From the UHGV virus genome UHGV-0151217: a stretch of DNA of 32,488 nt; one strand, written 5' to 3'. This DNA comes from a virus. Below the pieces are notes generated by a model, which was not told the origin of the DNA, did no database searches, and saw only the letters and a list, made by a program, of their open reading frames with translations. The translations under genes and the position numbers were made by a program. Below are positions 570 through 29,110 of the stretch, piece after piece; position 1 is the stretch's first letter, and each line of letters opens with the position of its first letter.

Positions 570-612
570 CAGCATACGCCTACCAAGTAGTAGGCGTTCA
601 TGCTGGTTTTTT
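570..612 (+). terminator. Intrinsic-terminator-like hairpin plus T-run at the 3' end of the repressor gene (+ strand orientation)
   Basis: Stem CAGCAT-ACGCCTAC / GTAGGCGT-ATGCTG (570-605) followed by GTTTTTT (606-612). The repressor stop codon lies inside the stem. Confidence 0.4.
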
Positions 613-1427: not shown

Positions 1428-1664
1428 ATGATGGTTAGAAATGAAGTAATGAACAAAGACTGGCACCGCGAGTACATCGTTGCCGCTGTGCACACCAAAG
1501 GTTTTACATTGCGTGAACTTTCTGAACGCGCTGGTCTAAAAAAAGACTCTTTAAAAAATGCACTGTATCGCTCATGCCCTAAATATGAACGCATCATAGC
1601 CGATGCTATTGGTGTGGAACCTGCGGAGATCTGGCCAAGCCGGTATGCCAGTAAGGCGGCGTAA
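1428..1664 (+). CDS. ner: Ner-like DNA-binding early regulator
   Basis: The 78-aa product contains DWHREYIVAAVHTKGFTLRELSERAGL...IIADAIGVEPAEIWPSRY, closely resembling the Mu Ner family. RBS AAGGGTAA. The stop overlaps the transposase start. Start may instead be 1449 (MNKDW...). Confidence 0.8.
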   Translation: MMVRNEVMNKDWHREYIVAAVHTKGFTLRELSERAGLKKDSLKNALYRSCPKYERIIADAIGVEPAEIWPSRYASKAA

Positions 1665-3706: not shown

Positions 3707-3724
3707 TTTAAAAGGTATTTAATT

Positions 3725-4618
3725 ATGAGTTTAATTACGCAATTAAATGACGTAATGGCCCGTCGCGGCTATACGCAGACCCACGTCGCCCGTGCAATTG
3801 GTCGTAGCAGCGCCGTTATCAACCAGTATTTGCAGGGTAAATATCAGGGCGATATGGCTGATATTGAAGAACGCATTTCTGCCTTTGTGACCCGTGAGCG
3901 GGAAAAGGAAAACAGCCGCCGTATTAAAGCAAAGTTTGTGACCACCGGTATGGCTGCCAAAGGACTGGAGGTGCTGGCCTACGCTCACCTGGAATGTGAA
4001 ATCTGTGTGCTGTATGGCGCAGCTGGCCTTGGCAAAACAATGATTCTGCGTGAATACGCCGCCAGAAACCGGGATGCGGTCCTGATTGAGGCTGACCCAG
4101 GCTATACAGCCAGGACACTGCTTGAGGAGTTGTGCCGCCAGCTGGGGGTAAAGGTTCGCGGCAACATTCACGAACTGATTGATGCCTGTGTGCGCGAACT
4201 GCGTGATTCCGGTCGTCTGCTGATGGTGGACGAAGCTGAACTGCTCCCCTATCGCGCACTGGAGGTTCTGCGCCGTCTGCATGATAAAGCGGGTATCGGG
4301 GTTGTCCTGGCGGGTATGCCTCGTCTTCTGATTAATCTCAAGGGGCGTCGTGGTGAATTTGCGCAGTTATACAGCCGCGTGGCGCTGGCGCTTAACCTGG
4401 GCGACACGCTGGCGCAGGAAGATTTTAACCAGATAGCCACCGGGCTGATGCCGGAAGCAGCAGAACCGGAAATCAGCGAGGCGCTTTACGCGCGCTCGCT
4501 GGGTAATGCCCGCCGCCTGTTCAAACTGGCGCGCGGTGTGTACCGGATTTGCGATATCAGCGATGCGCCGGTCAGTGTGCAGGCCATAGATAAATTCGCA
4601 GAAATGTTAATTCACTGA
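3725..4618 (+). CDS. Transposition ATPase (MuB-like, AAA+)
   Basis: 297 aa with a Walker A motif (GAAGLGKT), a Walker B-like LLMVDEAE, and an N-terminal HTH-like segment. Directly follows the transposase. Confidence 0.85.
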   Translation: MSLITQLNDVMARRGYTQTHVARAIGRSSAVINQYLQGKYQGDMADIEERISAFVTREREKENSRRIKAKFVTTGMAAKGLEVLAYAHLECEICVLYGAAGLGKTMILREYAARNRDAVLIEADPGYTARTLLEELCRQLGVKVRGNIHELIDACVRELRDSGRLLMVDEAELLPYRALEVLRRLHDKAGIGVVLAGMPRLLINLKGRRGEFAQLYSRVALALNLGDTLAQEDFNQIATGLMPEAAEPEISEALYARSLGNARRLFKLARGVYRICDISDAPVSVQAIDKFAEMLIH

Positions 4619-6539: not shown

Positions 6540-6619
6540 TTTAATTTGTTTTTAATTGTTATTTAAAACAGGCGTAAACCCGCCGGGCTGGCTTACGCCT
6601 GAATCAAGAGGATTTGTAT

Positions 6620-8382: not shown

Positions 8383-8609
8383 ATATTGAATTTTATGACT
8401 ACGGAGTCACCGCAAAAATCATTGTTACCTGCTGGTTCTGGGAGTTCCGCCGCTATCGCCGGGTTGTGGATGCGGCGCTGTTTGTTGCTCCTGAAGTGCG
8501 CCATGAGAGCGGTGGCGGTCTTTTAATGAGAACAGTCATCACCGGTAAAACGGTTCCGATGTTACGGGCGTTTAAGGTGGCAAAACAGGAGGCTGGCAAT
8601 GGTCATTGA
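8379..8609 (+). CDS. Hypothetical protein
   Basis: 76-aa ORF with ATGA overlap to the upstream stop. Confidence 0.5.
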   Translation: MNIEFYDYGVTAKIIVTCWFWEFRRYRRVVDAALFVAPEVRHESGGGLLMRTVITGKTVPMLRAFKVAKQEAGNGH

Positions 8610-8889
8610 TAAAACGATAACGATAGATGTAGCCATGAATACAGGTCTGGCGCTTATCGGTTATGGCTATATCATTTTTATGTCATTCAGGTGGTTGATT
8701 TCTTCGTTCTTTAAGCAATGTGAAAAACGTCGCCGCAAAGACAAGCGCGTGAAGGCGCTAAATGCGTTTAATGACGCTTTTGATATTGACCGTATGCAGC
8801 AGGGAGATCCGGCACGCGTAATTACCCTGGGAGATATCGTGATTTTGGTATACCGGAGTGAAAAAAATGAGCAGGAGGCGGCGCAGTGA
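8599..8889 (+). CDS. Hypothetical small membrane protein
   Basis: 96 aa, RBS AGGAGG 7 nt upstream. One predicted N-terminal transmembrane segment (LALIGYGYIIFMSFRWLISSFF) followed by a basic stretch. Confidence 0.55.
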   Translation: MVIDKTITIDVAMNTGLALIGYGYIIFMSFRWLISSFFKQCEKRRRKDKRVKALNAFNDAFDIDRMQQGDPARVITLGDIVILVYRSEKNEQEAAQ

Positions 8890-9194
8890 ACCAGCAAACC
8901 AGAATAAGCGATAAGAGCCTGACCAGACTGATTGCCGATGCTGACAAAATGCTTGATATGCGCGGGCCGATTGTAGACAGAGAGTGGTGGACGCTCTTAC
9001 GGCAGTCCCTGCTGGAGCTTCAGGAATACCGGAGAGCAGGAATCATTCCGGTGACACCGGGAGCAAAAGAGCATCAGCTCAGGGAGCTGGTTAATAAATT
9101 ACGCGATGTGGCAATCAAATACCACGGAACGCAGCAATTACGGGCGCATATTGCAAAAACAGTAATCCGTTCAGGACTGATTTCAGGGGAATAA
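8886..9194 (+). CDS. Hypothetical protein
   Basis: 102-aa ORF from a GTG start overlapping the upstream stop (GTGA), with AGGAGG upstream. Confidence 0.5.
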   Translation: MNQQTRISDKSLTRLIADADKMLDMRGPIVDREWWTLLRQSLLELQEYRRAGIIPVTPGAKEHQLRELVNKLRDVAIKYHGTQQLRAHIAKTVIRSGLISGE

Positions 9195-9198
9195 TCAG

Positions 9199-9381
9199 AT
9201 GAAAAACCGTAAAGCAAAAATTCTTTTGACCTGTAGAAACGCTCGCGGCGTCCAGCAATGGCTAAAACTCAGTAACCGCAGAATGGGTTTGTTCACAAAC
9301 ACAGCTGATATTGTGATGTGTTCCCTTAACAAGCCCAGCGCAGCCCAAAATCGCTGGAAGAATCACACTAACGCAAAGTAA
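9199..9381 (+). CDS. Hypothetical small basic protein
   Basis: 60-aa ORF with RBS CAGGGGAA. Confidence 0.45.
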   Translation: MKNRKAKILLTCRNARGVQQWLKLSNRRMGLFTNTADIVMCSLNKPSAAQNRWKNHTNAK

Positions 9382-9399
9382 TTAAATAATAACCAACAG

Positions 9400-9445
9400 C
9401 AGACCAAAACATATGTTTTGGTCTGCCAAAAATGATGTTTTGGTC
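9400..9445. promoter_or_regulatory. Operator-like site: 26-bp perfect palindrome plus a third half-site
   Basis: CAGACCAAAACAT|ATGTTTTGGTCTG (9400-9425) and a further GTTTTGGTC at 9437-9445, just downstream of an AT-rich -10-like stretch (TAATTAAATAAT) and directly upstream of ATG 9449. Confidence 0.4.
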
Positions 9446-9448
9446 ATT

Positions 9449-9727
9449 ATGAAGATTGAACAAATCGGAATGGCAGCTTTCAGGCAACAGGCTGAAAGCG
9501 GTGGCGTGGATGAGTTCGTCGTGCAGCGGTTCGGGGGTGTGTATCACCTCTTCGCTGTGAATCGCCGCGCCGGGGTGTCCTATTTTCTACAGGAACGCCG
9601 TGGCGATTACAAGACGTGGCTGTCTCTTGACCGTGCCGCCGCGTTCCTGTCGGGGATTGGTGTTTCACGTTTTACCGTGCGTTTTGAGGATAACAAACAT
9701 GCAGAAAAAGATGATCGGGGCCATTAA
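9449..9727 (+). CDS. Hypothetical protein (start uncertain)
   Basis: ORF open from 9413 with in-frame ATGs at 9413, 9449 and 9470 and no clear RBS. 3' end overlaps gemA by 29 nt. Confidence 0.4.
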   Translation: MKIEQIGMAAFRQQAESGGVDEFVVQRFGGVYHLFAVNRRAGVSYFLQERRGDYKTWLSLDRAAAFLSGIGVSRFTVRFEDNKHAEKDDRGH

Positions 9728-10112
9728 AGCCGGTCAGGCATATCTGGGGTGGGATGATGCTCTTTATCGCCAGACACTGATCCGCCTGACAGGTAAAACC
9801 AGCACCACACGCTGCAATCTCGATGAACTGCGCATCATCCGGGAATACATGCACGAACAGGGATTTCCGCGCAAGGCCCCCGCTGGTAAAGGTCGCCGCC
9901 CTCGTGTTGCAATGAGCAGAAAATCGGTATTATCCAAAATTGAAGCGTTACTGGCTGATGCCGGTCGTTCCTGGGCGTATGCGGAAGGACTGGCATCTCA
10001 CATGTATAAGCAACATGTGATCGAATGGCTGACGGATGAACAGCTTTTCGGGGTGATGGTGGCGCTGACAAAAGACGCCAGAAAACGAGTCAGAGCAGCA
10101 CGTAAACAATAA
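9699..10112 (+). CDS. gemA: GemA-like regulatory protein (DUF1018 family)
   Basis: 137 aa from ATG 9699 with RBS GAGGA. MIGAIKAGQAYLGWDDALYRQTLIRLTGKTS... matches the GemA/DUF1018 pattern, and the position before Mor/C matches Mu. Confidence 0.7.
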   Translation: MQKKMIGAIKAGQAYLGWDDALYRQTLIRLTGKTSTTRCNLDELRIIREYMHEQGFPRKAPAGKGRRPRVAMSRKSVLSKIEALLADAGRSWAYAEGLASHMYKQHVIEWLTDEQLFGVMVALTKDARKRVRAARKQ

Positions 10113-10118
10113 AGAATC

Positions 10119-10145
10119 AGCCCCTGCCTTGCAGGGGCTTTTTTG
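10119..10145 (+). terminator. Rho-independent terminator after gemA
   Basis: AGCCCCTGC-CTT-GCAGGGGCT hairpin followed by TTTTTT. Confidence 0.6.
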
Positions 10146-10150
10146 TGGTC

Positions 10151-10178
10151 TGTACAGGCGATCATGTATGGCTATAAT
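10151..10178 (+). promoter_or_regulatory. Candidate sigma70 promoter upstream of the Mor/C-family gene (possible middle promoter)
   Basis: Perfect TATAAT at 10173-10178 with TGTACA 16 bp upstream, 30 bp before ATG 10208. Confidence 0.35.
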
Positions 10179-10207
10179 AACAGTAAGTTACTACCGGAGA
10201 CGCCATC

Positions 10208-10675
10208 ATGCAGACCTTCAGTGAAACAGATCTTCGCGATGCGCAGGCACTGCTGCCCGATTCCGTGCAGCAACTGATTAGCGTGATTGGCTTCCCCGCC
10301 ATGACCCGGTTGATTCGTTCTTTTGGTGGCGTGACGTTAAGCGGTAAAACCGGCGCACACGCCGAACGTACTGGCGGTGTCCATGCCCTGTTACATGACG
10401 TGCTGACCGAAGACGAAATCAACAAACTGATCCGCTTTCTTGGCGGTGCTCCGTTTTACATTCCCCGTTGCGATCATGCGTTACGTGCTCTGCGTAACGC
10501 CCGTTTTATGGCTGATTTACAGCAGCATATCAGAGACGGATTTTCACACCGGCAGGCGCTGGCACTGCTTTGTCCCCGTTACGGGATTTCAGACCGGTAC
10601 GCATGGCAGCTGATACACCGACGACAAAAACAGACTTCGCTGAAAAGCCCCACCCAGGTGGGGCTTTTTGATTAA
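10208..10675 (+). CDS. Mor/C-family transcriptional activator of late (or middle) genes
   Basis: C-terminal LIRFLGGAPFYIPRCDHALRALRNARFMADL...YGISDRYAWQLIHRR aligns with the Mu Mor/C HTH region (...HLGGGQVYIPRG...). Which of Mor or C it corresponds to is unresolved. Confidence 0.8.
   Translation: MQTFSETDLRDAQALLPDSVQQLISVIGFPAMTRLIRSFGGVTLSGKTGAHAERTGGVHALLHDVLTEDEINKLIRFLGGAPFYIPRCDHALRALRNARFMADLQQHIRDGFSHRQALALLCPRYGISDRYAWQLIHRRQKQTSLKSPTQVGLFD
10646..10670 (+). terminator. Rho-independent terminator at the end of the Mor/C-family gene
   Basis: AGCCCCACC-CAG-GTGGGGCT hairpin followed by TTTTT, overlapping the last codons. Confidence 0.55.
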
Positions 10676-10701
10676 TGGGCCTCAGAAAAAAGGAGACACT
10701 T

Positions 10702-10980
10702 ATGACCAACTATACGGCACTTGGCGAGTATACAGCCTACTCAGAGCAGGCCCGGGATGCTGCCGGACGCCGCTTCGCTTATATGAAAAATCTGGCCAGC
10801 CAGCTAAACCGAATGGCCGAACAACCGGATATGGTTGTTCAGGAAGAAGCGTTGCAGTGTGCCATTGCTGACATCATCGCCAGCGAAAACGAGATGCGTG
10901 CAGCGATGGAAAAGGCGAACGCCTCTGCTCCGCTTTGTAATAAACCTCTTATTACGCCGGATTCTCTTTCCCGCTTCTGA
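10702..10980 (+). CDS. Hypothetical protein
   Basis: 92 aa from ATG 10702 with RBS AAGGAG. The ORF is open from 10675. Confidence 0.5.
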   Translation: MTNYTALGEYTAYSEQARDAAGRRFAYMKNLASQLNRMAEQPDMVVQEEALQCAIADIIASENEMRAAMEKANASAPLCNKPLITPDSLSRF

Positions 10981-11000
10981 TTTATCACCCCGCCGCCGCG

Positions 11001-13914: not shown

Positions 13915-15555
13915 GTGGCAAAACGTAAACTTTCCATTAAAGAGTTTCAGAGAAGCCTGCAGGAGTACATCGCCAACCTCCGCCAGACCATCGAGGCTGA
14001 ATGTCTGGGGTTCGATGTTAACCCGCAGGCCACACAGGCCCGCCGGGCGGCAGTCTGCGACCCGGTGACGGGCTACGATTATTTTGTCGAAAATTATTTC
14101 CCGCACTACGTCCGCAACCCGGCAAAAAGTGAGCTGCATAAATACCTGTTCAGCCGTCTGCCACAGGTTGTGGCAAGCCCGGACCCGGAGAACGACGCCA
14201 TCGCCGCGCCCCGTGGTGAAGCAAAATCCACGCTGGTGACTCAGCTGTTTACCCTGTGGACCATTATCCGGGCCATTAAGCATTACCCGGTCATCATTAT
14301 GGACAGTATCGACCAGGCTTATCCGATGCTGGAAGCCATCAAGGCTGAACTGGAGTTTAACCCCCGTTTAAAAAACGATTTCCCGGAAGTGTGCGGGCAG
14401 GGTCGCGTCTGGCGTATGGGGACCATCGTCACGGCCAACAATATCAAGGTGACCGTTGCCGGTAGTGGTAAAAAACTGCGTGGTCTGCGCCACGGCCCGT
14501 ACCGTCCTGACCTGGTTATCCTCGACGATATCGAGAACGACGAGATGGTGCGTAACCCGGAGCAGCGCGACAAGCTGCATGACTGGCTCACCAAAACCGT
14601 GATGCCGCTGGGCGAGGCTGGCGGTAAAACCGATATTATTTATATCGGAACCATCCTGCATTACGACTCCGTACTGTCGCGCACGCTGAATAATCCGATG
14701 TGGAAAACGGCCCGCTTTAAGGCCGTTATTCAGTGGCCTGCCAACATGAAGCTGTGGGACGAGTGGGAAGAACTCATCCGCAACAAACAGCCGGAAGCAG
14801 CGGAGGCACTTTACCGGCAGAACGAAGCCGACATGCTCGCCGGGTCGGTGGTGTCATGGGCGGCGCGTCCCCTGCTGGCGCTGATGAAAATCCGTGTCCG
14901 TGACGGTCACGACACCTTTGATTCTGAATACCAGAACGACCCGGTCAGCGGTGAAGATGCGCTGTTTGCGGGCTGCATTAAGTTCTGGGTTAACCGTCTT
15001 GATGAATGGGTGTTCTACGGCGCTGTTGACCCCAGTCTCGGGAAGAAGAATAAAAACCGCGACCCGTCGGCCATTCTCGTGGGGGGCTTTAACCGTTTTA
15101 CCGGCATACTGGATGTGGTTGAAGCCGATATCCGCCGGCGTCTGCCAGATAAACTTATCGAAGACGTGATTAAGTATCAGCGGGAATATCACTGCCTGTG
15201 CTGGTCGTTTGAGTCCGTTCAGTTTCAGGAGTTTCTGCGTACCGTGCTGGTTGAGCGTTCGGCGGCGCTGGGTGTGCCGGTTCCGGCGCTGCCGGTCATC
15301 CCGCTGGAGGATAAAGCGCTGCGTATCGAATCCCTTCAGCCGCATATGGCCAACGGCCTGATTCGTATCAGCCACACACATCAGACGCTGATTGACCAGC
15401 TGCGCCACTACCCCAAAGCCGACCACGATGATGGCCCGGACTGTCTGCACATGCTGTGGACGCTGGCGGTATCGCGCAGCGCAAAATTTCAGATACACAC
15501 CCCACGCAGCACCGGGCGTGACCGTGGCGGGCGTTTTGGTTCAGGAGGATGGTAA
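13915..15555 (+). CDS. Terminase large subunit (Mu gp28-like)
   Basis: About 546 aa from GTG 13915, immediately after the methylase stop (the ORF is open from TTG 13858). Walker A-like APRGEAKST and acidic nuclease-type motifs. Confidence 0.8.
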   Translation: MAKRKLSIKEFQRSLQEYIANLRQTIEAECLGFDVNPQATQARRAAVCDPVTGYDYFVENYFPHYVRNPAKSELHKYLFSRLPQVVASPDPENDAIAAPRGEAKSTLVTQLFTLWTIIRAIKHYPVIIMDSIDQAYPMLEAIKAELEFNPRLKNDFPEVCGQGRVWRMGTIVTANNIKVTVAGSGKKLRGLRHGPYRPDLVILDDIENDEMVRNPEQRDKLHDWLTKTVMPLGEAGGKTDIIYIGTILHYDSVLSRTLNNPMWKTARFKAVIQWPANMKLWDEWEELIRNKQPEAAEALYRQNEADMLAGSVVSWAARPLLALMKIRVRDGHDTFDSEYQNDPVSGEDALFAGCIKFWVNRLDEWVFYGAVDPSLGKKNKNRDPSAILVGGFNRFTGILDVVEADIRRRLPDKLIEDVIKYQREYHCLCWSFESVQFQEFLRTVLVERSAALGVPVPALPVIPLEDKALRIESLQPHMANGLIRISHTHQTLIDQLRHYPKADHDDGPDCLHMLWTLAVSRSAKFQIHTPRSTGRDRGGRFGSGGW

Positions 15556-17150
15556 TGGCACAGCTTGTTGATATTTACGGACGCCCGCTGAAACGTGAGG
15601 CACTCAAAACCACGCAGTCGGTCCGGGTGGCGGAACGGCTGCGCATTTATCCCGACCACCCGTCGCGTGGTCTGAACATCAGAAAACTGCCGCGCATTCT
15701 GGAAGCAGCCGAACGCGGTTATCTTCCGGCGCAGGCGATGCTGTTTGCGGATATGGAAGAACGTGACGGCCATCTGTTCGCCGAGATGGAAAAGCGCAAA
15801 AAAGCGTTGCTGACGCTGGACTGGTCGGTGGAGCCACCCCGCAATGCCTCGAAGGCTGAAAAGGAGCTGGCCGCCGCCGTGGATGAGTGGCTGCACGGTA
15901 TCCCGGATATGGAGGACATCATCCTCAACGGGATGAGCAGTGTCGGTTACGGTTTCAGCTGTCAGGAAATCAGCTGGGCGTTCGTGGACAAAACGTGGCT
16001 ACCGGATGCGGTAACGCTGCGACCGCATAACTGGTTTATTACCCTGCCGGAACACAATGACGAACTCCGGCTGGATGACGGCAACTGTGGGGAAGATGGT
16101 AAAGACGGTTCCGCGCTGTGGCCGTTCGGCTGGCTGGTTCATCGTTACAACGCCCGGTCGGGGTTCCTGGGTTCATCCGGCCTGTTCCGCGTACTGGTCT
16201 GGCCGTATCTGTTTAAAAACTTTGCGCTGCGTGATATGGCGGAATTTCTGGAGATTTACGGTCTTCCGGCGCGCATTGCCTACTATGCACAGGGCACCAG
16301 TGATGCTGACCGGGACAACATTCTCGAAGCCCTGGTCAATCTGGGCCATGAAGCGGTGGCAGCACTCCCTCAGGGTAACGAGATTGAATTCAAGGAGGCC
16401 GCCTCCGGCGGGCCGGAGGCGTTCATGTCGATGGTGGAATGGGCGGAGCGTACCACCTCAAAAGTGATCCTGGGCAGTACACTGACCAGTCAGGCCGACG
16501 GCAAATCCTCCACCAACGCGCTGGGTAATGTGCATAACGAGGTCCGGCACGACATTCTGACCGCCGATGCTCGCCAGCTGTCCGGCATGTTCAGTAGTCT
16601 GATACAGATGATGGCCAATCTCAACGGCTGGCAGGATATCCCACCGCGTCGCCTGCCACGTCTGGTGTTTGATGTGCAGCAGGAAGCCGACATTAAGAGT
16701 GTGGCAGAAGCCGTCAGCGTGCTGGTTAACAATGTGGGGATGAAGGATATCCCGGTGTCGTGGGTACGCCAAAAAACCGGTATTCCCACCCCGAAAGACG
16801 GCGAAGAGGTACTGGTGCCGGTAGCTCAGCGTCTCCCTGTGCAGGCTGGTCTCAGCCAGCTGCGTGAACGGCTGAATATTGCCGTGCTCAGTCAGCAGGA
16901 CAACGGGGAGGACGACCCGGCACAGCGCGCCATTGACCGGGCAGAACTTCCGGCAGAGGCCATTGCGCAGGGGATGAACGAACTGGTGGCACCTCTGGTG
17001 CAGGCCATACAGGAAGGTCGTGATGCAGATGAGGCCATGAACGTACTGGCGGAAGCCTGGCCGGAACTGCCGGATGACACGCTGCGGCAGTTGCTGACAC
17101 AGGCGTTCTTTGTGGCGGATATCTGGGGGAGACTGAATGCCGACAGCTGA
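15555..17150 (+). CDS. Portal protein (Mu gp29-like, DUF935)
   Basis: About 531 aa with RBS CAGGAGGA. Start overlaps the terminase stop. Alternative start 15549. Confidence 0.85.
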   Translation: MAQLVDIYGRPLKREALKTTQSVRVAERLRIYPDHPSRGLNIRKLPRILEAAERGYLPAQAMLFADMEERDGHLFAEMEKRKKALLTLDWSVEPPRNASKAEKELAAAVDEWLHGIPDMEDIILNGMSSVGYGFSCQEISWAFVDKTWLPDAVTLRPHNWFITLPEHNDELRLDDGNCGEDGKDGSALWPFGWLVHRYNARSGFLGSSGLFRVLVWPYLFKNFALRDMAEFLEIYGLPARIAYYAQGTSDADRDNILEALVNLGHEAVAALPQGNEIEFKEAASGGPEAFMSMVEWAERTTSKVILGSTLTSQADGKSSTNALGNVHNEVRHDILTADARQLSGMFSSLIQMMANLNGWQDIPPRRLPRLVFDVQQEADIKSVAEAVSVLVNNVGMKDIPVSWVRQKTGIPTPKDGEEVLVPVAQRLPVQAGLSQLRERLNIAVLSQQDNGEDDPAQRAIDRAELPAEAIAQGMNELVAPLVQAIQEGRDADEAMNVLAEAWPELPDDTLRQLLTQAFFVADIWGRLNADS

Positions 17151-18303
17151 CGATGTTGACCTGGGTTATGCGTACACCCTGAAACCGGAAGAAGCGATTA
17201 GGTATTTCGAAAGCAAGGGATACGTTATCGGCTTCCGCTGGCACGATGTGAGGGACATCGCCAGTGCCCGGGCGTTCACGGTGGCAGGCGTGCTGAAACT
17301 GGATGTTCTGAAGGATATCCGTGATGGCCTGACGACGGCACTGGCTGATGGCGGGACGTTCCGGGAGTTTGCAGCACAACTGGAACCACTGCTGGAATCA
17401 AAAGGCTGGCTGGGTAAAAAGCTGATTGTGGACGAGGACACCGGCGAACTGCACGGCAGACAGCTGACGCCGCGCCGGTTGCGCACGATATTTGATACCA
17501 ACATTCAGTCGTCCTACAACGCCGGACGTTATCAGCAGCAGATGGCGAACGTGGCTGACCGGCCTTATTTTGAGCGCGTGGCGGTGATGGACCTTCACAC
17601 CCGCCCGAAACACGCCGCCCTGAACGGTTTTACCGCCCGGGCGGATGATCCGGTCTGGGAGTATCTCTACGCGCCGGACGGGTACGGATGCCGCTGCCGT
17701 ATCCGGGCGCGTTCGGCGTCGGATGTGGAGAAATATGGCCTGACGGTGCAGAGCAGCGAGGGGCGGCTGGTTGAGGTTGAGCAGGAATATGGCCAGCCGG
17801 GCCAGACCATCAGAACGATGGGGCTGAAAATGCCGGACGGATCCGTGTATACCGCCGACCCGGGCTTTGGATTTAATCCCGGTCGGGTGGCATGGCAGCC
17901 GGAACTGGAAAAATATGATTACCGCAGCGCCCGCCAGTATGTCACCGGCACGCTGACCGGGCCGGATTTTGCCCGGGGACTGGCGAACGTCAGCGAACTG
18001 GATGCGCGCCAGCGATATCCGCTGGCCATCCGTTCACCGGAACAGGTCGCCGCCACGGGCGCTGCACGGCAGACGGTAAACCTTACGGCTGACGTCATGC
18101 AGCGCCTCAGCGCAGCAGACACGCCCCCGACCGCCGCCGACTATGCGCTGATGCAGCAGACCATCGAACGGGCGGAGCATGTCACGCAGGACGGTAACGC
18201 GTGGCGGTATGCGTTACAGTCAGGCGACCGCTGGTCGGTGGTGACGGTTGAGGATGGCACGCTGACAGACTGGGTGATGCAGGACACCCCGGAGGCATCA
18301 TGA
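17137..18303 (+). CDS. Head morphogenesis protein (Mu F-like)
   Basis: 388 aa with RBS GGGGAGA, overlapping the portal 3' end. Sequence is typical of the Mu F / SPP1 gp7 head morphogenesis family. Confidence 0.8.
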   Translation: MPTADDVDLGYAYTLKPEEAIRYFESKGYVIGFRWHDVRDIASARAFTVAGVLKLDVLKDIRDGLTTALADGGTFREFAAQLEPLLESKGWLGKKLIVDEDTGELHGRQLTPRRLRTIFDTNIQSSYNAGRYQQQMANVADRPYFERVAVMDLHTRPKHAALNGFTARADDPVWEYLYAPDGYGCRCRIRARSASDVEKYGLTVQSSEGRLVEVEQEYGQPGQTIRTMGLKMPDGSVYTADPGFGFNPGRVAWQPELEKYDYRSARQYVTGTLTGPDFARGLANVSELDARQRYPLAIRSPEQVAATGAARQTVNLTADVMQRLSAADTPPTAADYALMQQTIERAEHVTQDGNAWRYALQSGDRWSVVTVEDGTLTDWVMQDTPEAS

Positions 18304-18851
18304 GCACCGGTAAACTGGATATTAAGATTGATTTAAGCGCGTATAACACCACGCTGGGGAAACTGATTCGTTCCGTGAAGGACCGGCGCGACCTGATGAC
18401 GGCACTTGCAGGCTCCATGCTGGATGCGGTTGAAACTAACTTTGAACAACAGGGTCGCCCGAAATGGATGGGCTGGAGTCCGGCCTATGCGAAACGGCGC
18501 GGCCCCGGGCAAATCCTTCAGAAGTCCGGGCGACTGGCTGCCAGTATCCGCTCTGCGGTTAACAATAACGAGGCCACGGTCGGGACAAACGTCCGTTATG
18601 CCCGTATCCACAACGAAGGCGGCGAAATACGCCATCAGGCACGGACGCAGAACCTGTATTTTAAGCAGTACAGGAACGGCAGCGTCAGCACCCGCTTTGT
18701 GAAGAAGCGCAACAGTAATTTTGTACAGAGCGCAACGGTCGGAGCGTATACGGTCAACATGCCCGCGCGCCCCTTCCTTCAGCTTGTACAGGACGACATC
18801 GACGAGCTGGAGAACACCGCAAACCGCTATTTTGCGCGTGTGATTGACTGA
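18300..18851 (+). CDS. Virion morphogenesis protein (Mu G-like)
   Basis: 183 aa with RBS GGAGG and an ATGA overlap with F. Position and size match Mu gpG. Confidence 0.7.
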   Translation: MSTGKLDIKIDLSAYNTTLGKLIRSVKDRRDLMTALAGSMLDAVETNFEQQGRPKWMGWSPAYAKRRGPGQILQKSGRLAASIRSAVNNNEATVGTNVRYARIHNEGGEIRHQARTQNLYFKQYRNGSVSTRFVKKRNSNFVQSATVGAYTVNMPARPFLQLVQDDIDELENTANRYFARVID

Positions 18852-19004
18852 ATGACCAGAAGCGCGCTGTAATCGCTTCTGACGACATAAACGCCTCACG
18901 GATGAGGCATTGCAGCACCGCACCCCATAAATGCCGCCAGAATCGTTTTTAAAAGGGTTTTAAAAACGGTTTTATTTCCCCTTTTATCCTTTCCCGTTAT
19001 GGCA

Positions 19005-19031
19005 GGGTGCTGAACACCCTCCACAGTACCC
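19005..19031 (+). promoter_or_regulatory. Conserved late-region motif, copy B
   Basis: GGGTGCTGAACACCCTCCACAGTACCC, 21 bp upstream of the first in-frame ATG of the I-like gene. Confidence 0.4.
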
Positions 19032-19051
19032 CGTGTTCCCCTTCCGTCATC

Positions 19052-20176
19052 ATGCCGCGCATGAAGATGAACATTGCGGCGTTAAGCCTCGAAATTACTA
19101 AAGCAACCCACAGCGAAATCCAGCTGTTTCCGGCAGGCGAGTTCAGCGCGGTGGATGGTCGCCCGTATACCGATGAAGTCGAAAGCGGTAAATGGGTGCT
19201 GACTGCCGGACTGGCCGCGCAGCTTGTCGCACAGGTGGCAGCCCGTACCACGCCTTTTGTCATTGATTACGAACATCAGACGCTGCGCGCCGTAAACAAC
19301 GGCAAGCCTGCCCCGGCGGCGGGCTGGTTCAGCCAGGTGGAATGGCGTGAAGGTTCGGGCCTGTATGCCATCGGTGTGGAGTGGACGGAGAACGCGGCGG
19401 CCATGATTGCCGCCGGAGAGTACAAATTTATTTCCCCGGTATTTGGATACAACCGGCGCGGCGAAGTCATCGAACTGTTACACGCCGCACTGACCAATAC
19501 CCCGGCGCTGGACGGTATGGACGCGGTCATGCTGGCTGCGGCCAGCCGTCTGGCGAGTCTGTCAACTGAAACGGAGACCACAACAGTGGATGAAGAACTG
19601 TTAAACGATTTGCTGTCCAGTCTGCGCTGGATGCTTAACCTCCCGGTTACCTCAACGGCGGAAGATATCAAAAACGAGCTGCAAAAGGTCGTTGACATGA
19701 TTTCGAACGGTCAGGGAACGGCGGCGGCATCCGTCAGCCTGCTGGCCCTGCTGAATCAGAAAGATGAGCAAATCGCCAGCCTGTCAGCCAGTGCCTATGA
19801 CCCGTCAAAACACATTTCCCTTGCTGCCTTCGAAGAACTTCAGGGGCGTTATGCCGCACTGGCGCAACAGTCCGGTGAGGCCGAAGCCGGGGCACTGATT
19901 CAGGCGGCGCTGTCTGACGGGCGACTGCTTCCGGCACAGGAAGACTGGGCGAAAGATTACGCCAGCCGCGATATCAACGGCTTTAAGTCCTGGCTGGATA
20001 ACGCACCGAAACTTGTTGCGCTCAGTCAGACCCAGACGGGCGGCAAACCACCCCAAACGCCGTCACCGGCCCCGGCGCAGATTAAAACCGGCGATGACGT
20101 CGATATCGATATCGCCATTTGTTCAATGATGGGCGTTGATCCAGAAGATATCGCCCGTTACGCAGGAGAAAAGTAA
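19052..20176 (+). CDS. Mu I-like protein (head protease / scaffold)
   Basis: About 374 aa. Start is uncertain (in-frame ATGs at 19052, 19061, 19067; no clear SD). Ala-rich C-terminal half. Lies between G and the capsid gene as in Mu. Confidence 0.75.
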   Translation: MPRMKMNIAALSLEITKATHSEIQLFPAGEFSAVDGRPYTDEVESGKWVLTAGLAAQLVAQVAARTTPFVIDYEHQTLRAVNNGKPAPAAGWFSQVEWREGSGLYAIGVEWTENAAAMIAAGEYKFISPVFGYNRRGEVIELLHAALTNTPALDGMDAVMLAAASRLASLSTETETTTVDEELLNDLLSSLRWMLNLPVTSTAEDIKNELQKVVDMISNGQGTAAASVSLLALLNQKDEQIASLSASAYDPSKHISLAAFEELQGRYAALAQQSGEAEAGALIQAALSDGRLLPAQEDWAKDYASRDINGFKSWLDNAPKLVALSQTQTGGKPPQTPSPAPAQIKTGDDVDIDIAICSMMGVDPEDIARYAGEK

Positions 20177-20572
20177 ATGGATCGTAATACCCCCTATCGT
20201 GACGGCGAACTGAACCCGGTGCCGGTTGCCGCTGCGACCGAAATTTTTGGCGGTCATATGGTGGCCGTTAACGCATCCGGTTATGCCGTTCCGGCCAGTG
20301 CCACGGCCTCACAGATTACGCTGGGCGTGTCTGATGGCTGGGTGGATAACAGCAAGGGCAGCGATGGCGACGCCACCGTTCTGGTGCGTTGCGGCAAAGC
20401 CTTTCTGATGGCGAACAGCACCTCAGATCCGGTCACGCAATCGCAGGTCGGCAAGCTGTGCTACGTGGAAGACAGCGTGACCGTGGCAAAAACCGACAAC
20501 AGCAGCGCCCGCCCTGTCGCCGGGAAAGTGATCGGCATCGGTGACGATGGCGTCTGGGTTCATTTCAGTTAA
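20177..20572 (+). CDS. Small head protein (Mu Z position; possibly DUF2190-like structural/decoration protein)
   Basis: 131 aa with RBS AGGAGA, beta-rich Gly/Val/Ala composition, directly before the major capsid gene. Confidence 0.55.
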   Translation: MDRNTPYRDGELNPVPVAAATEIFGGHMVAVNASGYAVPASATASQITLGVSDGWVDNSKGSDGDATVLVRCGKAFLMANSTSDPVTQSQVGKLCYVEDSVTVAKTDNSSARPVAGKVIGIGDDGVWVHFS

Positions 20573-20582
20573 GGAGCGAAAC

Positions 20583-21491
20583 GTGTTAGTTAACGCTAAA
20601 AACCTCAACCAGATTTTTATCAATCTTAAGACCACCTATCAGAAAGCCTTCGACCAGACCCCCACTGACTGGCAAAAAGTGGCAATGGAAGTGCCATCAG
20701 GCAGCAAGGAGAACGACTACAGCTGGTTGAGTCGTTTCCCGAAAATGCGCGAGTGGGTCGGTGATAAAAACGTTAAATCTCTGGAAGCCTTCAACTACAC
20801 CATCCGCAACAAGGACTGGGAAGCCACGGTTGAAGTCGATCGTAACGACATCGAGGACGACCAGATTATGGGCTATGCCCTTCAGGCCAGAGACGCGGGC
20901 CAGTCAGCGGCAGAACTCCCGGCAGATATTGTGGCGTCCCTTATCAATAACGGTTTTACCAGTCCCTGTTACGACGGCCAGATGTTCTTTGATACCGACC
21001 ACCTGGTCGCCGGTAAATCGGTGTCCAACAAAGGCACCAAAAAACTCAAAGTGGGGTCGCTTGCTGAAGCAAAAGCCTCCTACGGTGCTGCCCGTACGGC
21101 CATGCGCAGTCTGAAAGATGACGAAGGCGCGTCTCTCAGAATCCGTCCGAATCTGCTGGTTGTGCCACCTGCGCTGGAAGATGACGCGAACTACCTGATG
21201 ACCGCCGAGAAGTTCCCGGACGGTACGCCGAACCCGTACCGCAACACCGCTGAAGTGCTGGTGATGCCGGAGCTGACGTCGGATTCTGCGTGGTTCCTGT
21301 TCGACACCTCCCGCTCGGTCAAGCCGCTGATCTTCCAGCAGCGTAAGAAACCGGTTTTTGTGGAGCAGACGGACTACAACAGCGACAACGTATTCATGCG
21401 TAAGAAGTTTCGGTTTGGTGCCGAAGCGCGCTGTAACGGCGGTTACGGCTTCTGGCAGATGGCATTTGGTTCTGATGGTACGACGGAGTAA
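20583..21491 (+). CDS. Major capsid protein (Mu T-like)
   Basis: About 302 aa from GTG 20583 with a strong RBS (AAGGAG, 6-nt spacing). The ORF is open from 20541. Position and size match the Mu major head subunit. Confidence 0.8.
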   Translation: MLVNAKNLNQIFINLKTTYQKAFDQTPTDWQKVAMEVPSGSKENDYSWLSRFPKMREWVGDKNVKSLEAFNYTIRNKDWEATVEVDRNDIEDDQIMGYALQARDAGQSAAELPADIVASLINNGFTSPCYDGQMFFDTDHLVAGKSVSNKGTKKLKVGSLAEAKASYGAARTAMRSLKDDEGASLRIRPNLLVVPPALEDDANYLMTAEKFPDGTPNPYRNTAEVLVMPELTSDSAWFLFDTSRSVKPLIFQQRKKPVFVEQTDYNSDNVFMRKKFRFGAEARCNGGYGFWQMAFGSDGTTE

Positions 21492-25498: not shown

Positions 25499-27761
25499 TT
25501 TCAAAGTTGGCATGACCCTGACTGCGAAGGATGAAGCCTCGCAGGTTCTGGAAAAGGGACAAAAACAGGTTATCAAAGCCACCGAAGATGTAACAAAGGC
25601 AACACGGAAGGCAGGCGCAGAGCAGAGGCGTACCGGACAGGAAAGCGTTAACAGCACGAAAAAGGCCGCAAAAGAGATACAGCGTGCCGCCCGTGCCCGG
25701 GAAACGCTCGGTATTCGTGCAGAGCGTGAGATCCGGCGTGAAATTTATCTGACGGTTGCCAGTTATAACCGTCTGGCTCGTGCCGGTTTTGAATCTGCGC
25801 AGGAGCAGGAACGCGCCATGCAGGCCACCCGGGAAAAAGCCCGGGCACTCAAGCGTGAACTGGATGGCGTCACTCAGGCACAGATGAAGATGGCGAAAAC
25901 GCCTGTTATCCCCGAACCGGGGCGTTTTGCCCGTGCGGCTGCATTTGGCGGGAATGCCGTGACAACAGGCGCTGGTATCGCAGCAGGTGCTGCCATTATG
26001 GCGCAGCCGGTCAAAAAGCAGATGAGCTACGAACGCCAGCTGGCAATGATGGCCAATACCGCCTTCAGTGATAGCGGGCTGGAGGGGCGCAGGGCTGGTC
26101 TTGAGCAGATGAAAAACAGCATCCGTAACGCGGTGACCTGGGGTGGCGGCACGAAAGAAGACGCCGCCGAAACGCTGGATGCCCTGCTGAAAGATGGCGG
26201 TATTTCATTTGAAACAGCCAGTAAGTGGCTGCCTGAACTGATGAAATACGCCACGGCTTCCGGTGCATCAGCGACAGACCTGGCTAATGTGATGCTTAAG
26301 GGTAAAAAGACCTTTGGATTCAGGGATGAAGATATTTCCACCGTTCTGAATATGGCAATTGCAGCGGGCAAAGAAGGTAGCTTTGAACTGAGCGACATGG
26401 CCCGCTGGTTATCTTCGCAACTGGGGTCAGCGTCAGCTGCGGGGATGAGAGGCAAGGATGATTTTGTCAAGATTCTGGCGCTGAATGAAGCTGCCGCCAT
26501 CACGGCGGGAAGCAGTGATGAGGCCGGAAATAACGTGTTTAACCTGCTGGCTAAACTGACCAGCCACGATATTGAAACAGCGGCAAAGAGCATTGATTAC
26601 AACGGTAAAGGAATTGATTTTTCCGGCACGCTGGTTCAGGCGCGCGAACATGGGCTTGATCCGATAGATGCGCTGTCCAGTCTGATAGACAAAATCGTTG
26701 CCAGCGATAAACGCTTTCAGGAGTTGCAAAAGAAACTGGCCTCCGCCCGGGATAAAGGCGAGCAGACAGCTGTTTATGATTCGATGGCAAAACTCCTTGA
26801 AGGCTTTGGTGTCGGGAAACTGGTTGCAGACCAACAGGCGTTAAAAGCGTTGCTGGCTTACCGTAACAACCCTGAATACCGGAAAAAGGTTGAAGACGCG
26901 ATTAATCAGCAGCGCACCCTGCCGGAAGGTCAGCGCGCGGGTGATGTGGATTTTAAATTCATATCCGGCCTCAATGACTTTAAAACCGAACAGGCCAAAA
27001 ACACGCTTGAATTTTCACAAATGGACAGCATGAAAAAGCTGGCTGATGCGTCCGGTACTGTGGCCGATGCCATAAGCTGGGCGGGTGAAAAGTTTCCGGG
27101 ACTGACCACGGCAGTGGTGGGTGCCACGACCGCCATTGAAGCGATGACCGCAGCGGCTCTGACATGGGCCGGGATCAAAATCCTGACCGGGGGTAAAACC
27201 GGTGGCAAGGCTGGCGAGGTTGTCGGTGATGTAATTGAAAACACGGTCAAAAAAGGCAAAGGATTTAAATTCCCCGGCATTGCCGGTAGCCTGCTTTCTT
27301 TCGGTGGCACCGTTACGGCACTGGCCACCGCAACCAGCCCGGAAGAAGACGCCGCCGTCGAAGGAAGCGAGGAACGCTGGAAGCGCATCCGCGCCCGATA
27401 TCCCCAGGAAATCATCGATGCTGCCCGCAAAAAATACCAGCCGTGGTGGCAGTTTGGGGAAGGCTACTCCACCGAAAACGAAGAGTGGTTGAGGCGCTGG
27501 GAGGAAGACAGGAAAAAAGCCGCAGCTGATGCCCTGCCATCACCGGCGCAGGTCAACAAAGCCGCCGGAAACACAACGCCTGAATCAGTATCAACGCAAC
27601 CCGGACGCATCACCCAGCCGGGATACCTCACGCACTGGGGGCCACCTGCCAGCCCCATTAATTTCACCACACAACTGGTGCTCGATGGTCAGATTGTGGC
27701 GGAAGCAGTGAACAAATACAACCTTCAGGACGGTAACAGAGGCACGGGAGGAACTTACTGA
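25488..27761 (+). CDS. Tail tape measure protein
   Basis: 757 aa. Alpha-helical, Ala/Lys-rich N-terminus, Gly-rich segments, downstream of the chaperone genes. Confidence 0.85.
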   Translation: MAGNFKVGMTLTAKDEASQVLEKGQKQVIKATEDVTKATRKAGAEQRRTGQESVNSTKKAAKEIQRAARARETLGIRAEREIRREIYLTVASYNRLARAGFESAQEQERAMQATREKARALKRELDGVTQAQMKMAKTPVIPEPGRFARAAAFGGNAVTTGAGIAAGAAIMAQPVKKQMSYERQLAMMANTAFSDSGLEGRRAGLEQMKNSIRNAVTWGGGTKEDAAETLDALLKDGGISFETASKWLPELMKYATASGASATDLANVMLKGKKTFGFRDEDISTVLNMAIAAGKEGSFELSDMARWLSSQLGSASAAGMRGKDDFVKILALNEAAAITAGSSDEAGNNVFNLLAKLTSHDIETAAKSIDYNGKGIDFSGTLVQAREHGLDPIDALSSLIDKIVASDKRFQELQKKLASARDKGEQTAVYDSMAKLLEGFGVGKLVADQQALKALLAYRNNPEYRKKVEDAINQQRTLPEGQRAGDVDFKFISGLNDFKTEQAKNTLEFSQMDSMKKLADASGTVADAISWAGEKFPGLTTAVVGATTAIEAMTAAALTWAGIKILTGGKTGGKAGEVVGDVIENTVKKGKGFKFPGIAGSLLSFGGTVTALATATSPEEDAAVEGSEERWKRIRARYPQEIIDAARKKYQPWWQFGEGYSTENEEWLRRWEEDRKKAAADALPSPAQVNKAAGNTTPESVSTQPGRITQPGYLTHWGPPASPINFTTQLVLDGQIVAEAVNKYNLQDGNRGTGGTY

Positions 27762-29110
27762 TGGGCTGGGCTGAAAACCTGCAAAACGCCTCCTTTCGTG
27801 GCGTGCAGTTTGATGTACTGAACACGGATGAACAAATCAGCCGCGACCATGCGGTCTATGAATACCCGTTTGTTGACGGGGCAGATTTGCACGACCTCGG
27901 ACGCAAGGCGCGACCGTTCCGCATGACGGCGTTCCTGTGGGGGGAGTATTACGAATATAAACTTGAAAAGCTGATCGCTGCCCTGGACGAAGGCGGCGAT
28001 GGTGAGCTGATTCACCCGGTTTACGGCTCCGTACCGTCGGTGATTGTGACCGGCTACAGCATTCGCCATGACGCAGAAAGCCCGGACAGCTGCACCATCG
28101 ACATGAGCTTTCTGGAGAGCCGCACCGGCAGTGCGTTGTTCTGCACCCCGTTACCAGAGCTGTTTGCACAGCAGTTATTTGAAGAACTGGATAAGTTACT
28201 GGCACAGTTAAGCGAATTTTTTGACGCTGTTACGCCCCCTTTAAAGACCATTAACAGCGTGATTAAAAAAATCCAGGCAGTGCGTGCCACGCTGGTAAAT
28301 ACCCTGCTGACGTTCAAAAGTGATTCATTCTCCACAGTCGAAAATGTTGTGTCACTGACCAGCGAACCCGGAAAGTTTATCGGCGGGCTGGCAGAGGTGC
28401 TGGAAATCCACACGTCAGATGTCGGGCACGCGGTGCCGGTTCTGGCGCGTAGTGATTCCGCCACCACGACCGGACTGACCGGGGAAGACAACGTCGCCAG
28501 TTCTGCGACAGTGATGACCTGCTGGAATGAGGTGATGGCAGATATGGATGAGCTGGTCGCGCTGCCGGTCGCACTGGTCAGCGGTGATAAAACGCCGTCT
28601 GTGGCACTTCCGCCGGATGCGTCCGTGGAAGACGTGCACGACGTGAAAGCGGCTTATGCGGTTCTGGCAGCCTCAGAGCTGGCCAGCGTGGCGACGGCGA
28701 TACTGTCAGATGAGGCCCAGTCAGAGCAGCTTATACCGGCGGATATCGGGCGACTGGTCGGGGATGTGCGCACCCGCTTACAGGCAGCCATCACGCTGTT
28801 CCGTGAACGCTATGAAGGCGAACGCGAACGGATAACCGAAACCGCATCACCGCTGGGGCTGATGTACCCGGAAATCATTCAGAGCATGAAGAACGTGGCG
28901 GCATCCGTGCAGGATGTCGGCCTGCTGACTCTGTCACGCCGCCCACCGCTGACGCAGAAACAGGTGCAGGCGGACGGTTGCCTGCTGTTGCTGGCGTGGC
29001 AGTGGTACGGTGATTACAGCCGTGCGGCAGAGCTGCAACGTCTGAACCCGCAGCTGCGTGACCCGAACAACATAACCGTCGGGATGGTGATTAATGCCTA
29101 TGCAAAATAA
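27761..29110 (+). CDS. DNA circularisation protein (Mu N-like)
   Basis: 449 aa with RBS GGGAGGAA. N-terminus NASFRGVQFDV...YPFVDGADLHDLGRKARPF matches the DNA_circ_N signature. Confidence 0.75.
   Translation: MGWAENLQNASFRGVQFDVLNTDEQISRDHAVYEYPFVDGADLHDLGRKARPFRMTAFLWGEYYEYKLEKLIAALDEGGDGELIHPVYGSVPSVIVTGYSIRHDAESPDSCTIDMSFLESRTGSALFCTPLPELFAQQLFEELDKLLAQLSEFFDAVTPPLKTINSVIKKIQAVRATLVNTLLTFKSDSFSTVENVVSLTSEPGKFIGGLAEVLEIHTSDVGHAVPVLARSDSATTTGLTGEDNVASSATVMTCWNEVMADMDELVALPVALVSGDKTPSVALPPDASVEDVHDVKAAYAVLAASELASVATAILSDEAQSEQLIPADIGRLVGDVRTRLQAAITLFRERYEGERERITETASPLGLMYPEIIQSMKNVAASVQDVGLLTLSRRPPLTQKQVQADGCLLLLAWQWYGDYSRAAELQRLNPQLRDPNNITVGMVINAYAK

Follow-up and report, generated by a model that had tools for sequence, protein, structure and literature searches.

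A probable Mu-type strong gyrase site between the G-like and I-like genes of a transposable prophage of Escherichia coli

[quoted passage not shown] The window, which is the whole stretch of 32,488 nucleotides that was analysed (UHGV-0151217), covers the greater part of a Mu-like transposable prophage from E. coli. The predicted gyrase cut lies near 18908-18911, after a decayed terminator and before the equivalent of the Mu promoter P_I; this assignment is drawn from sequence comparison. An analogy with the Mu SGS had been proposed from the shared placement between G and I. In silico the analogy is supported, as gene context, a position at about 52% of the prophage, homology to the Mu right arm, phasing and sequence constraint all agree. 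Gyrase binding, the exact cut, DNA wrapping and a role in replication are steps carried over by analogy with Mu, where cleavage, processivity and the replication role have been demonstrated.

The prophage and its central spacer

Pfam matches along the window identify a Mu-type transposase (1664-3706), a MuB-like AAA ATPase (3725-4618), a Mor/C-family activator gene (10208-10675), the portal (15549-17150), an F homologue (17137-18303) and the T capsid protein (20541-21491). The spacer is bordered upstream by the gene for a G-type virion morphogenesis protein on the + strand (18300-18851; PF05069, 2.4e-26). RefSeq relatives of this gene carry the annotation 'phage virion morphogenesis protein'. 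The downstream border is a Mu-like I protease/scaffold gene, also on the + strand (19052-20176, or from the ATG at 19061; PF10123, 9e-98). The spacer is 200 bp long to the ATG at 19052 and 209 bp long to the in-frame ATG at 19061, which is the PGAP start in relatives.

Several complete E. coli genomes contain prophages that match the 1.2 kb around the spacer at 100% identity, and a prophage in E2348/69 matches it at 96%. The closest deposited phage has approximately 72% DNA identity over only a quarter of the query. The I protein of the window prophage is approximately 28-30% identical to the I proteins of Mu and the O157 prophage.

The left 267 bases of the window are host rhaR, in which the prophage is inserted. 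Homology to copies of this phage that are inserted independently in other strains begins at 267/268, and the left end of the prophage is at 268 (TGTGGGGTAGTG...). A left end at 152, which assumed collinearity with a related prophage in RIVM_C036569, was rejected since the window prophage sits in rhaR. The right end is outside the window. The RIVM_C036569 relative is 99.9% identical over 10995-32488, and two observations define its ends: a 5-bp target duplication, ACGGT, and an unoccupied uspA-dtpB site in 5,419 genomes. Transfer of its right end places that of the window prophage at approximately 36000 and gives a prophage of approximately 35.7 kb. With the right end transferred in this way, the predicted cut is at approximately 18.64 kb of approximately 35.7 kb, or about 52%, and the Mu site is at 48.7%. 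In complete Mu-like phages of Klebsiella, Pseudomonas, Mannheimia, Rhodovulum and Faecalibacterium, I likewise begins 50-53% of the way along the genome.

The location of the Mu central gyrase site between G and I, on which the original prediction relied, is correct according to GenBank AF083977. In this record, G ends at 17859, the gyrase cut is at 17879/17880, a terminator is at 17908-17953, P_I is at 17977-18043 and I starts at 18056. The cut is 20 bp past the G stop, in a G-I spacer of 196 bp. The 133-bp SGS fragment of Sutormin et al. yields a 4-bp stagger in Mu at 17876-17879, in agreement with the GenBank cut. Three TTTAA units, at 17894, 17915 and 17927, are +18, +39 and +51 from the first base of this stagger. 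A tandem of two TTTAAAnGGGG units spans 17915-17936, within the SGS right arm.

Central gyrase sites have been known since 1990 in Mu and since 2004 in several Mu-like prophages. The sites described by Oram and Pato in 2004 are said to be those of E. coli O157 Sakai Sp18, H. influenzae, S. Typhi and N. meningitidis. Gyrase reportedly cleaved the central sites of the Salmonella Typhi and H. influenzae prophages, yet these sites failed to sustain Mu replication. Cleavage by itself thus does not make a site a functional 'strong' one. The putative element in the window would be of the same class as these, with a gyrase site at the prophage centre, but the window prophage belongs to another lineage. 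The O157:H7 Mu-like prophage (L002) has the same phased units as the window in its G-I spacer (TCTAACCTGAA-TTTAACGGGC-TTTAAAATCTG). The Sakai O157 prophage site was the only heterologous site that promoted Mu replication (PMC10052514). Because no other site has substituted for that of Mu (PMC10052514), function of the window site in trans is not to be assumed.

Register, phasing and constraint of the putative right arm

The spacer contains a tandem direct repeat, TTTAAAAGGGT-TTTAAAAACGG, on the + strand at 18948-18969, with a unit of approximately TTTAAAnGGGG and a period of 11. When position 0 is set at 18908 in the window and at 17876 in Mu, the repeat units are at +40 and +51 in the window and at +39 and +51 in Mu. 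In this register, the right arms are identical at 25 of 47 positions, the left arms at 15 of 47 and the cores at 6 of 36. Identity to the Mu SGS is limited to the right arm. The predicted right arm (18928-18990) has five phased A/T blocks between G/C blocks. These A/T blocks are at 18927-18932, 18941-18943, 18946-18954, 18958-18966 and 18970-18977, and Mu and the Topo-seq consensus have theirs in the same places.

The same register would place the left arm, motif positions -63 to -17, at 18845-18891, which is hypervariable, and the G-segment core, positions -16 to +19, at 18892-18927. The 4-bp staggered cleavage, GAGG^CATT^GCAG, is predicted at 18908-18911, to within 2 bp at best. As the predicted core is unlike the Mu core, the cut position is an extrapolation only. 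A proposed homology between the Mu cut-site sequence CAGCCGCAC and CAGCACCGCAC in the window was dropped, since the cores are unrelated in the right-arm register.

The phasing was scored as AT/GC Fourier power at a period of 10.75 bp, which was fixed a priori from the Topo-seq paper (PMC6379681). The segment from 18922 (18922-18990) ranks first of 32,435 at W=54 and is among the top three at W=65. In the same test, the Mu right arm ranks 173 of 36,664, and the two sites differ in that the phasing is stronger in the window.

Similarity to the gyrase consensus was scored as a crude match to the 133-bp Topo-seq consensus string, not as a weight matrix, and is a weak proxy for a gyrase site. By identity to this string, a centre at 18910 ranks 3 of 32,356. 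By W/S match, the best centre in the window is 18891 and 18910 ranks 45. In the calibration of this proxy, the true Mu SGS ranks 48th by identity and 3rd by W/S match of 36,585, and it is identical to the consensus string at only 42 of 133 positions. The published weight matrix gives the Mu SGS a score of 14.3. The consensus proxy and the periodicity test both draw largely on the TTTAAA repeats and are not independent of each other.

Evidence that is partly independent of the repeat comes from the left-arm-plus-core consensus, which was slid over 35 non-redundant lineages. The best repeat-free offset is -40, which is the geometry of Mu. Phased A/T peaks in these lineages, which are related and not phylogenetically independent, reach approximately 100 bp upstream of the repeat and beat 2000 of 2000 circular-shift permutations. 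The motif described by Topo-seq (Sutormin et al. 2019) has a 130-bp footprint with a core, two arms and a GC/AT periodicity of 10.75 bp. The A/T blocks of the window are in phase with it, and the phage repeat closely resembles its consensus arm unit, CCTTTAAGGGGG. Chromosomal and plasmid sites such as those of pSC101 and pBR322 differ from the window site in being degenerate and without a fixed gene context, and the plasmid sites do not promote Mu replication.

Variation among 19 distinct close-clade alleles is unevenly distributed over the spacer. In 18941-18975, a single column of 35 is variable, whereas 18852-18940, the left half of the spacer, has 53 variable columns of 89. As judged from these alleles, the putative right arm is under strong purifying selection. 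The constrained right half and variable left half match the genetics of the Mu SGS, which requires its right arm but can do without its left arm (PMC10052514, PMC13284261). In the cryoEM structure of gyrase on the Mu SGS, the right arm wraps a GyrA beta-pinwheel, makes five sharp bends and presents the T-segment; the minor grooves of its AT repeats are turned toward the protein (PMC11626157).

Features by which an SGS is recognised are found together in this spacer: the G-I gap, a near-central place, a phased right arm and homology to the Mu right arm in register. The window site and the Mu SGS share the near-central G-I gap followed by a late promoter (P_I in Mu), extended phased A/T-G/C right-arm bending signals with TTTAAAnGGnn tandem units, and a constrained right arm beside a free left arm.

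Hairpins, terminators and the late promoter

Three hairpins are present on the + strand of the spacer. Hairpin 1 (CAGAAGCG/CGCTTCTG) has an 8-bp stem, a 9-nt loop and no U-tract, and is found exactly where it had been placed, at 18857-18881. Hairpin 2 (GCCTCA-CGGA-TGAGGC) has a 6-bp stem and a CGGA loop. It had been located at 18892-18907 and is present one base to the right, at 18893-18908, in the left half of the predicted G-segment. Hairpin 3 (18941-18977) consists of an inverted repeat over the tandem repeat followed by TTTTATTT, with an RNA dG of -12.3. The AT-rich stretch at 18944-18968 had been described as a perfect palindrome. Its 11-bp arms are perfect but its GGG centre is non-symmetric, and the inverted repeat extends to 14-nt arms at 18941-18971 with 93% complementarity.

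The description of the spacer as hairpin-rich is accurate, as it is in the top 1% or so of 200-bp segments by perfect-hairpin density. Hairpins 1, 2 and 3 fold far better than their own shuffles (DNA z of -3.8, -4.3 and -5.4). The whole 146-nt stretch folds just modestly better than expected (z of -1.84). A search of Rfam gave no match at E<=1 across 18500-19300.

Across the 19 alleles, the dG of hairpin 1 ranges from -1.7 to -11. The outer stem of hairpin 1 is retained in approximately 12 of the 19, including one with a compensatory G-C to C-G swap (18859/18879), and the hairpin is mismatched in five. Hairpin 2 is retained in 16 of the 19 close alleles without covariation and is missing from more distant relatives. 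Conservation of the hairpins as a functional feature was rejected, since only the close clade has hairpins 1 and 2 and hairpin 3 is unformed in most lineages. Nor are the hairpins what gives the spacer its likeness to an SGS: hairpins 1 and 2 are lineage-limited, variable and located in the part that Mu can dispense with.

The spacer may be read instead as transcriptional punctuation only. Hairpins 1-3 would then end the lysis-to-G transcript, a promoter for I would follow, and gyrase would have no special role. This reading is unlikely. It accords with the canonical terminators that are found just past G in relatives and with the late-promoter motif downstream. For example, five related loci (L004, L005, L006, L130 and L131) have a canonical terminator where the window has hairpin 1. 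Hairpin 1 aligns with the left half (AAACGCGCTGTAA) of the canonical terminator that is intact in L004-L006 and in a Klebsiella phage. On this alignment, hairpin 1 is best described as a decayed remnant of the G-gene terminator of relatives. The one compensatory swap among alleles of hairpin 1 is also in favour of punctuation, but neither hairpin 1 nor hairpin 2 has a U-tract.

Hairpin 3 with TTTTATTT is the remaining candidate for an intrinsic terminator. Its 16-bp stem is nearly all A-U, with two G-C pairs, and UUUUAUUU is directly 3' of the stem. A TransTermHP terminator is annotated over the same repeats in Mu (17908-17953). However, a scan with a consensus terminator found none on the + strand of the spacer, hairpin 3 included. 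A hairpin with a T-tract is present only in the close lineage of the window and, in different form, in Mu. The repeats of the window form a simple AT hairpin of 14-16 bp, whereas those of Mu are enclosed by an outer GC stem (ACGGGATT/AATCCCGT). In L005, L068 and L070, a hairpin forms over the repeat but has no T-tract. In approximately 30 lineages, the repeat is unable to pair and has no T-tract.

The repeat in most relatives is non-palindromic (for example, TTTAAAAGGGGTTTAACAGGGG), with no hairpin over both units and no T-tract; the conserved entity is therefore the direct repeat and not the stem-loop. The AT-rich palindrome of the original prediction is, on these comparisons, a conserved tandem direct repeat whose units lie on the same helical face. 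Terminators also occur apart from the repeat. In a Mannheimia phage, an annotated terminator is followed by a TTTAAA array of four to five units, and in L005 and L006 a separate canonical terminator is upstream of the repeat. Since a separate terminator precedes the repeat in these phages, the terminator and the repeat are distinct elements. Punctuation would also leave unexplained the phasing over at least six turns and the fixed geometry of approximately 40 bp to the Mu cut.

The suggestion that the hairpins terminate the upstream head-gene transcript is weakly supported and fits AU-rich hairpin 3 best, which alone is followed by UUUUAUUU. Hairpin 3 and its T-tract are possibly a weak intrinsic terminator specific to the lineage of the window. 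The window lineage differs from Mu in that its terminator after G is decayed. The predicted order of elements in the window (a terminator-like hairpin, a gyrase site, an activator-dependent late promoter and I) is that of the Mu lys-I terminator and P_I region. A terminator and a promoter are probably present alongside the putative gyrase site and not in its stead.

The late-promoter motif, GTGCTGAACACCCTCC, is on the + strand at 19007-19022 and is the putative P_I equivalent. A conserved late motif had been noted in this position, and it is real: GTGCTGAAC[A/T]CCCTC has three + strand copies, at 11003, 19007 and 30956, which precede the lysis, head and baseplate blocks, respectively. It is kept as GCTGAACCCCCTCA in L004-L008. 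A shared motif before three late gene blocks is also the arrangement of the lys, I and P promoters of Mu, but the late motif of the window, GTGCTGAACNCCCTC, is unrelated in sequence to the C-dependent promoters of Mu. Both a shared element before the late operons and a phage-encoded activator gene of the Mor/C family are present, as in an activator-dependent late system. No sigma-70 promoter was found in 18300-19500, which agrees with a late promoter that depends on an activator. The predicted late promoter of the I-T head operon is the motif at 19007-19022. The TTTAAAnGGGG motif is missing at the other two late promoters of the window, and the repeat was therefore rejected as a site for the late activator.

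The tandem repeat among Mu-like phages and its meaning

G-I spacers were extracted from Mu, an O157:H7 strain, Intestinirhabdus, Buttiauxella, Trabulsiella, Photorhabdus, Xenorhabdus, Chitinimonas and several beta-, gamma- and deltaproteobacterial MAGs. In all of these (13 other Mu-like prophages), a tandem of approximately TTTAAAnGGGG with an 11-bp period is found in the middle of the spacer. Mu, the O157 prophage and approximately 70 of 130 related loci from several bacterial classes have the repeat among their central head genes, most often in the G-I gap. When an accessory gene is located between G and I, the repeat mostly remains directly after G. There is one strong copy of the repeat per genome.

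In 65 of 125 loci, the best match of the locus to a 22-nt PWM of the repeat is on the gene strand, 50-350 nt upstream of I. A PWM made from non-enteric lineages only ranks 18948 first in the window, with 21.6 bits compared with a maximum of 18.8 bits in 200 shuffles. The best match of this PWM in Mu is at 17916, within the SGS right arm. Among exact matches in IMG/VR to the 17-mer TTTAAAMGGGKTTTAAA, 69 of 120 are in Mu-like head regions, and at least 23 of these 69 are exactly between G and I.

In the Casadabanvirus phages of Pseudomonas, the repeat is inverted and is located between aca and the protease gene. In Ab30, a transposition-free stretch of 37 bp at 18736-18772 had been regarded as a 'candidate SGS' (PMC5977238). 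The tandem repeat is absent from this stretch, which contains instead a pair of inverted repeats directly upstream of the first inserted gene. This pair presumably resembles the Aca1 operators of the anti-CRISPR promoter.

The TTAA and GG of both units are near-invariant, with exact 11-bp spacing, in hosts of very different G+C content; the base-specific conservation is inflated, as the loci were chosen with the PWM itself. This pattern, together with the single strong copy per genome, could also be produced by a sequence-specific site for a protein other than gyrase, phage-encoded or nucleoid-associated, that binds as a tandem dimer on one face of the DNA. Such a protein could act on expression of the head operon or on domain organisation of the prophage, with or without gyrase. 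In Mu, generic strong gyrase sites, including plasmid sites, fail to replace the SGS (PMC10052514), and domain formation also requires MuB, the L end, IHF, Fis and HU (PMC3820752). Both of these observations are compatible with another protein. However, no candidate protein is known, inspection shows no fit of the repeat to the consensus of IHF or Fis, and no copy accompanies the other two late promoters of the window. The unit is near the optimal CTD-wrapping unit of the gyrase consensus, the phasing runs well past the two units, and the same bases in Mu are within the gyrase wrap that has been footprinted with DNase and resolved by cryoEM. The apparent base specificity is in part an artefact of the choice of loci. 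Binding by another protein is distinctly improbable.

That the spacer is chance AT-rich filler whose inverted repeats have no function is scarcely credible and is effectively refuted by the conservation data: intergenic DNA is AT-rich, TTTAAA is self-complementary and other phased TTTAA clusters are present in the window (453-500, 3707-3722 and 6540-6578), but the TTTAA-N6-TTTAA pattern has 18 matches compared with approximately one expected, and an invariant block amid hypervariable flanks recurs at one and the same genomic position in different bacterial classes.

If the spacer is a Mu-type SGS, host DNA gyrase would bind it with a G-segment at approximately 18892-18927 and cleave near 18908-18911. 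The segment from 18928 to 18990 would wrap one C-terminal beta-pinwheel of GyrA, with its A/T minor grooves toward the protein, and deliver the T-segment. In Mu, processive supercoiling from the central site aids synapsis of the ends at induction (PMC3820752, PMC10052514), and loss of the SGS by deletion causes a delay of roughly 40-100 min (PMC10052514). Highly processive supercoiling from the near-central site would likewise extrude the prophage of approximately 35.7 kb as a plectonemic loop, and this would place both prophage ends side by side for transpososome assembly on induction. Within the remaining 60 bp or so of the spacer, 19007-19022 would drive the I-T head operon as a late promoter. 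Upstream, hairpin 1 would be a decayed G-gene terminator, and hairpin 3 with its T-tract may add weak termination.

Two meanings of the repeat are compatible with a Mu-type SGS. There is a little better than an even chance that the repeat is no more than the right-arm signature that SGSs have kept throughout the Mu-like phages. It is doubtful that the repeat is a family-wide sequence-specific determinant, read by a dedicated phage or nucleoid protein that acts with gyrase, or needed for a special wrap around the GyrA CTD. If it were, this would explain the failure of generic gyrase sites to replace the Mu SGS, and it would provide a one-line signature for locating the SGS in transposable phages.

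A central gyrase site is expected in a Mu-like transposable phage and is a known kind of element. What may be new is an explicit short signature that is shared by the family. In a 2021 paper with Mu specialists among its authors, the conservation of gyrase sites among transposable phages was described as unclear (PMC8705779). The repeat signature makes this question directly testable and predicts where to look, for example in the Casadabanvirus phages. The natural variants of the repeat could help to work out how the wrapping and processivity of gyrase are controlled by DNA phasing.

Location of the repeat in related phages

The tandem TTTAAAnGGGG direct repeat of the G-I spacer (window 18948-18969) has a counterpart in the Pseudomonas Casadabanvirus phages. 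In Ab30 (L128 3136-3157, record 19635-19656) and DMS3 (L129 2345-2366, record 18896-18917), it takes the form TCTAACGGGGTTCTAACGGGGT on the minus strand. It is flanked on one side by genes inserted after the virion morphogenesis gene G and on the other by the protease gene. In DMS3, the annotation of these inserted genes names an anti-CRISPR gene and a winged-helix gene. The Ab30 repeat lies outside the 37-bp transposition-free segment that has been proposed as the strong gyrase site of that phage (18736-18772). This segment is found just after G and contains an inverted-repeat pair, GGCACATTGTGCC...GGCACAATGTGCC.

Other loci carry matches at different positions. Some lineages (L156 and L195) contain the exact 17-mer of the repeat approximately 1 kb downstream of the protease gene I and on the opposite strand, instead of in the G-I gap. 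Mu (L047) has a 17-bit match to the 22-nt matrix of the repeat on the minus strand at 20079-20100, just after the T gene and over an annotated terminator. Such a match may mark either an additional phased site or one that has moved. In a further relative (L027), the repeat is placed between the portal gene and an F-like gene. Within coding sequence of the window, two minus-strand matches score 18-19 bits, a level that equals or slightly exceeds the shuffle maximum: TTTAAACGGGGGTTAAAC (14351-14372) in the large terminase gene, and TTTAAAGGGGGCGTAACAGCGT (28224-28245) in the gene for the DNA circularization protein (27761-29110).

Phased motifs and repeats elsewhere in the phage

Just inside the left end of the prophage, there are three direct copies of ATTCTGGGCG[G/C] (window 284-294, 358-368 and 409-419). 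Near the right end of a relative (L127 37657-37690), inverted copies CCCAGAAT and CCCAGAAAA are present. By analogy with L1-L3 and R1-R3 of Mu, these end repeats look like transposase-binding sites. A second phased array, TTTAAAAGA-TTTTAAAACTCG-TTTAAAAGA-TTCTAAAGCCCG-TTCTAA, occupies window 453-500 with a period of approximately 11 bp, with the left-end repeats on one side and the 3' end of a repressor-like gene (598-1245, minus strand) on the other. This array scores 16-20 bits with the matrix of the repeat, approximately the shuffle maximum, and may be a bend or a nucleoid-protein site of the left end.

Phased TTTAA units are also found in the short gap between the stop of transposase gene A and the start of gene B, both in this phage (TTTAAAAGGTATTTAA, window 3707-3722) and in Mu (TTTAATTAACGTTTAAACAAAATTTAA, 3315-3341). 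To our knowledge, no function has been described for them.

The start of the I gene (window 19047-19067) is ambiguous, with candidate ATG codons at 19052, 19061 and 19067. The equivalent of 19061 is the start called by PGAP, and the surrounding ...GC(G/A)TATGAAA is kept in relatives. A TCATCATGC/GCATGAAGA inverted repeat spans the first two of these codons and could form a translation-control hairpin.

Insertion sites and strain differences

Window 1-267, the left flank of the prophage, encodes the N-terminus of the host protein RhaR (translation read by eye), so rhaR is interrupted by this prophage copy at the 267/268 boundary. The rhaR-prophage junction is absent from all complete E. coli genomes in the collection searched. 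In other strains, this phage is inserted in a PAAR gene, in yfcC, in aslB, in the uspA-dtpB spacer and at further sites, a scatter that is expected under random transposition. The prophage of E. coli RIVM_C036569 is 99.3-99.9% identical to the window outside the early/middle region (8597-10995). That region is the only substantially divergent part, with replaced segments and islands of 94-96% identity. The Mu-like prophage of O157:H7 strain Z887 (L002) has a RefSeq 'tRNA-OTHER' annotation between F and G (2150-2237, minus strand).

Possible recombination and cargo genes at the G-I junction

The G allele of one IMG/VR relative (L062) is unrelated to that of the window, and homology restarts at window ~18890-18900, approximately 10 bp to the left of the predicted gyrase cut. 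According to one suggestion (PMC8705779), illegitimate recombination and the gain of genes at this position may be promoted by a gyrase cleavage site. The L062 breakpoint, together with the hypervariability of the spacer's left half, is consistent with this suggestion. [quoted passage not shown]

In several lineages, one gene of 190-310 aa without a Pfam match separates the repeat from I (L012 1798-2409, L021 1414-2334, L024 1594-2412, L111 678-1418, L115 718-1455, L100 833-1417 and L018 1764-2372). These single genes are moron-like cargo of the G-I junction.
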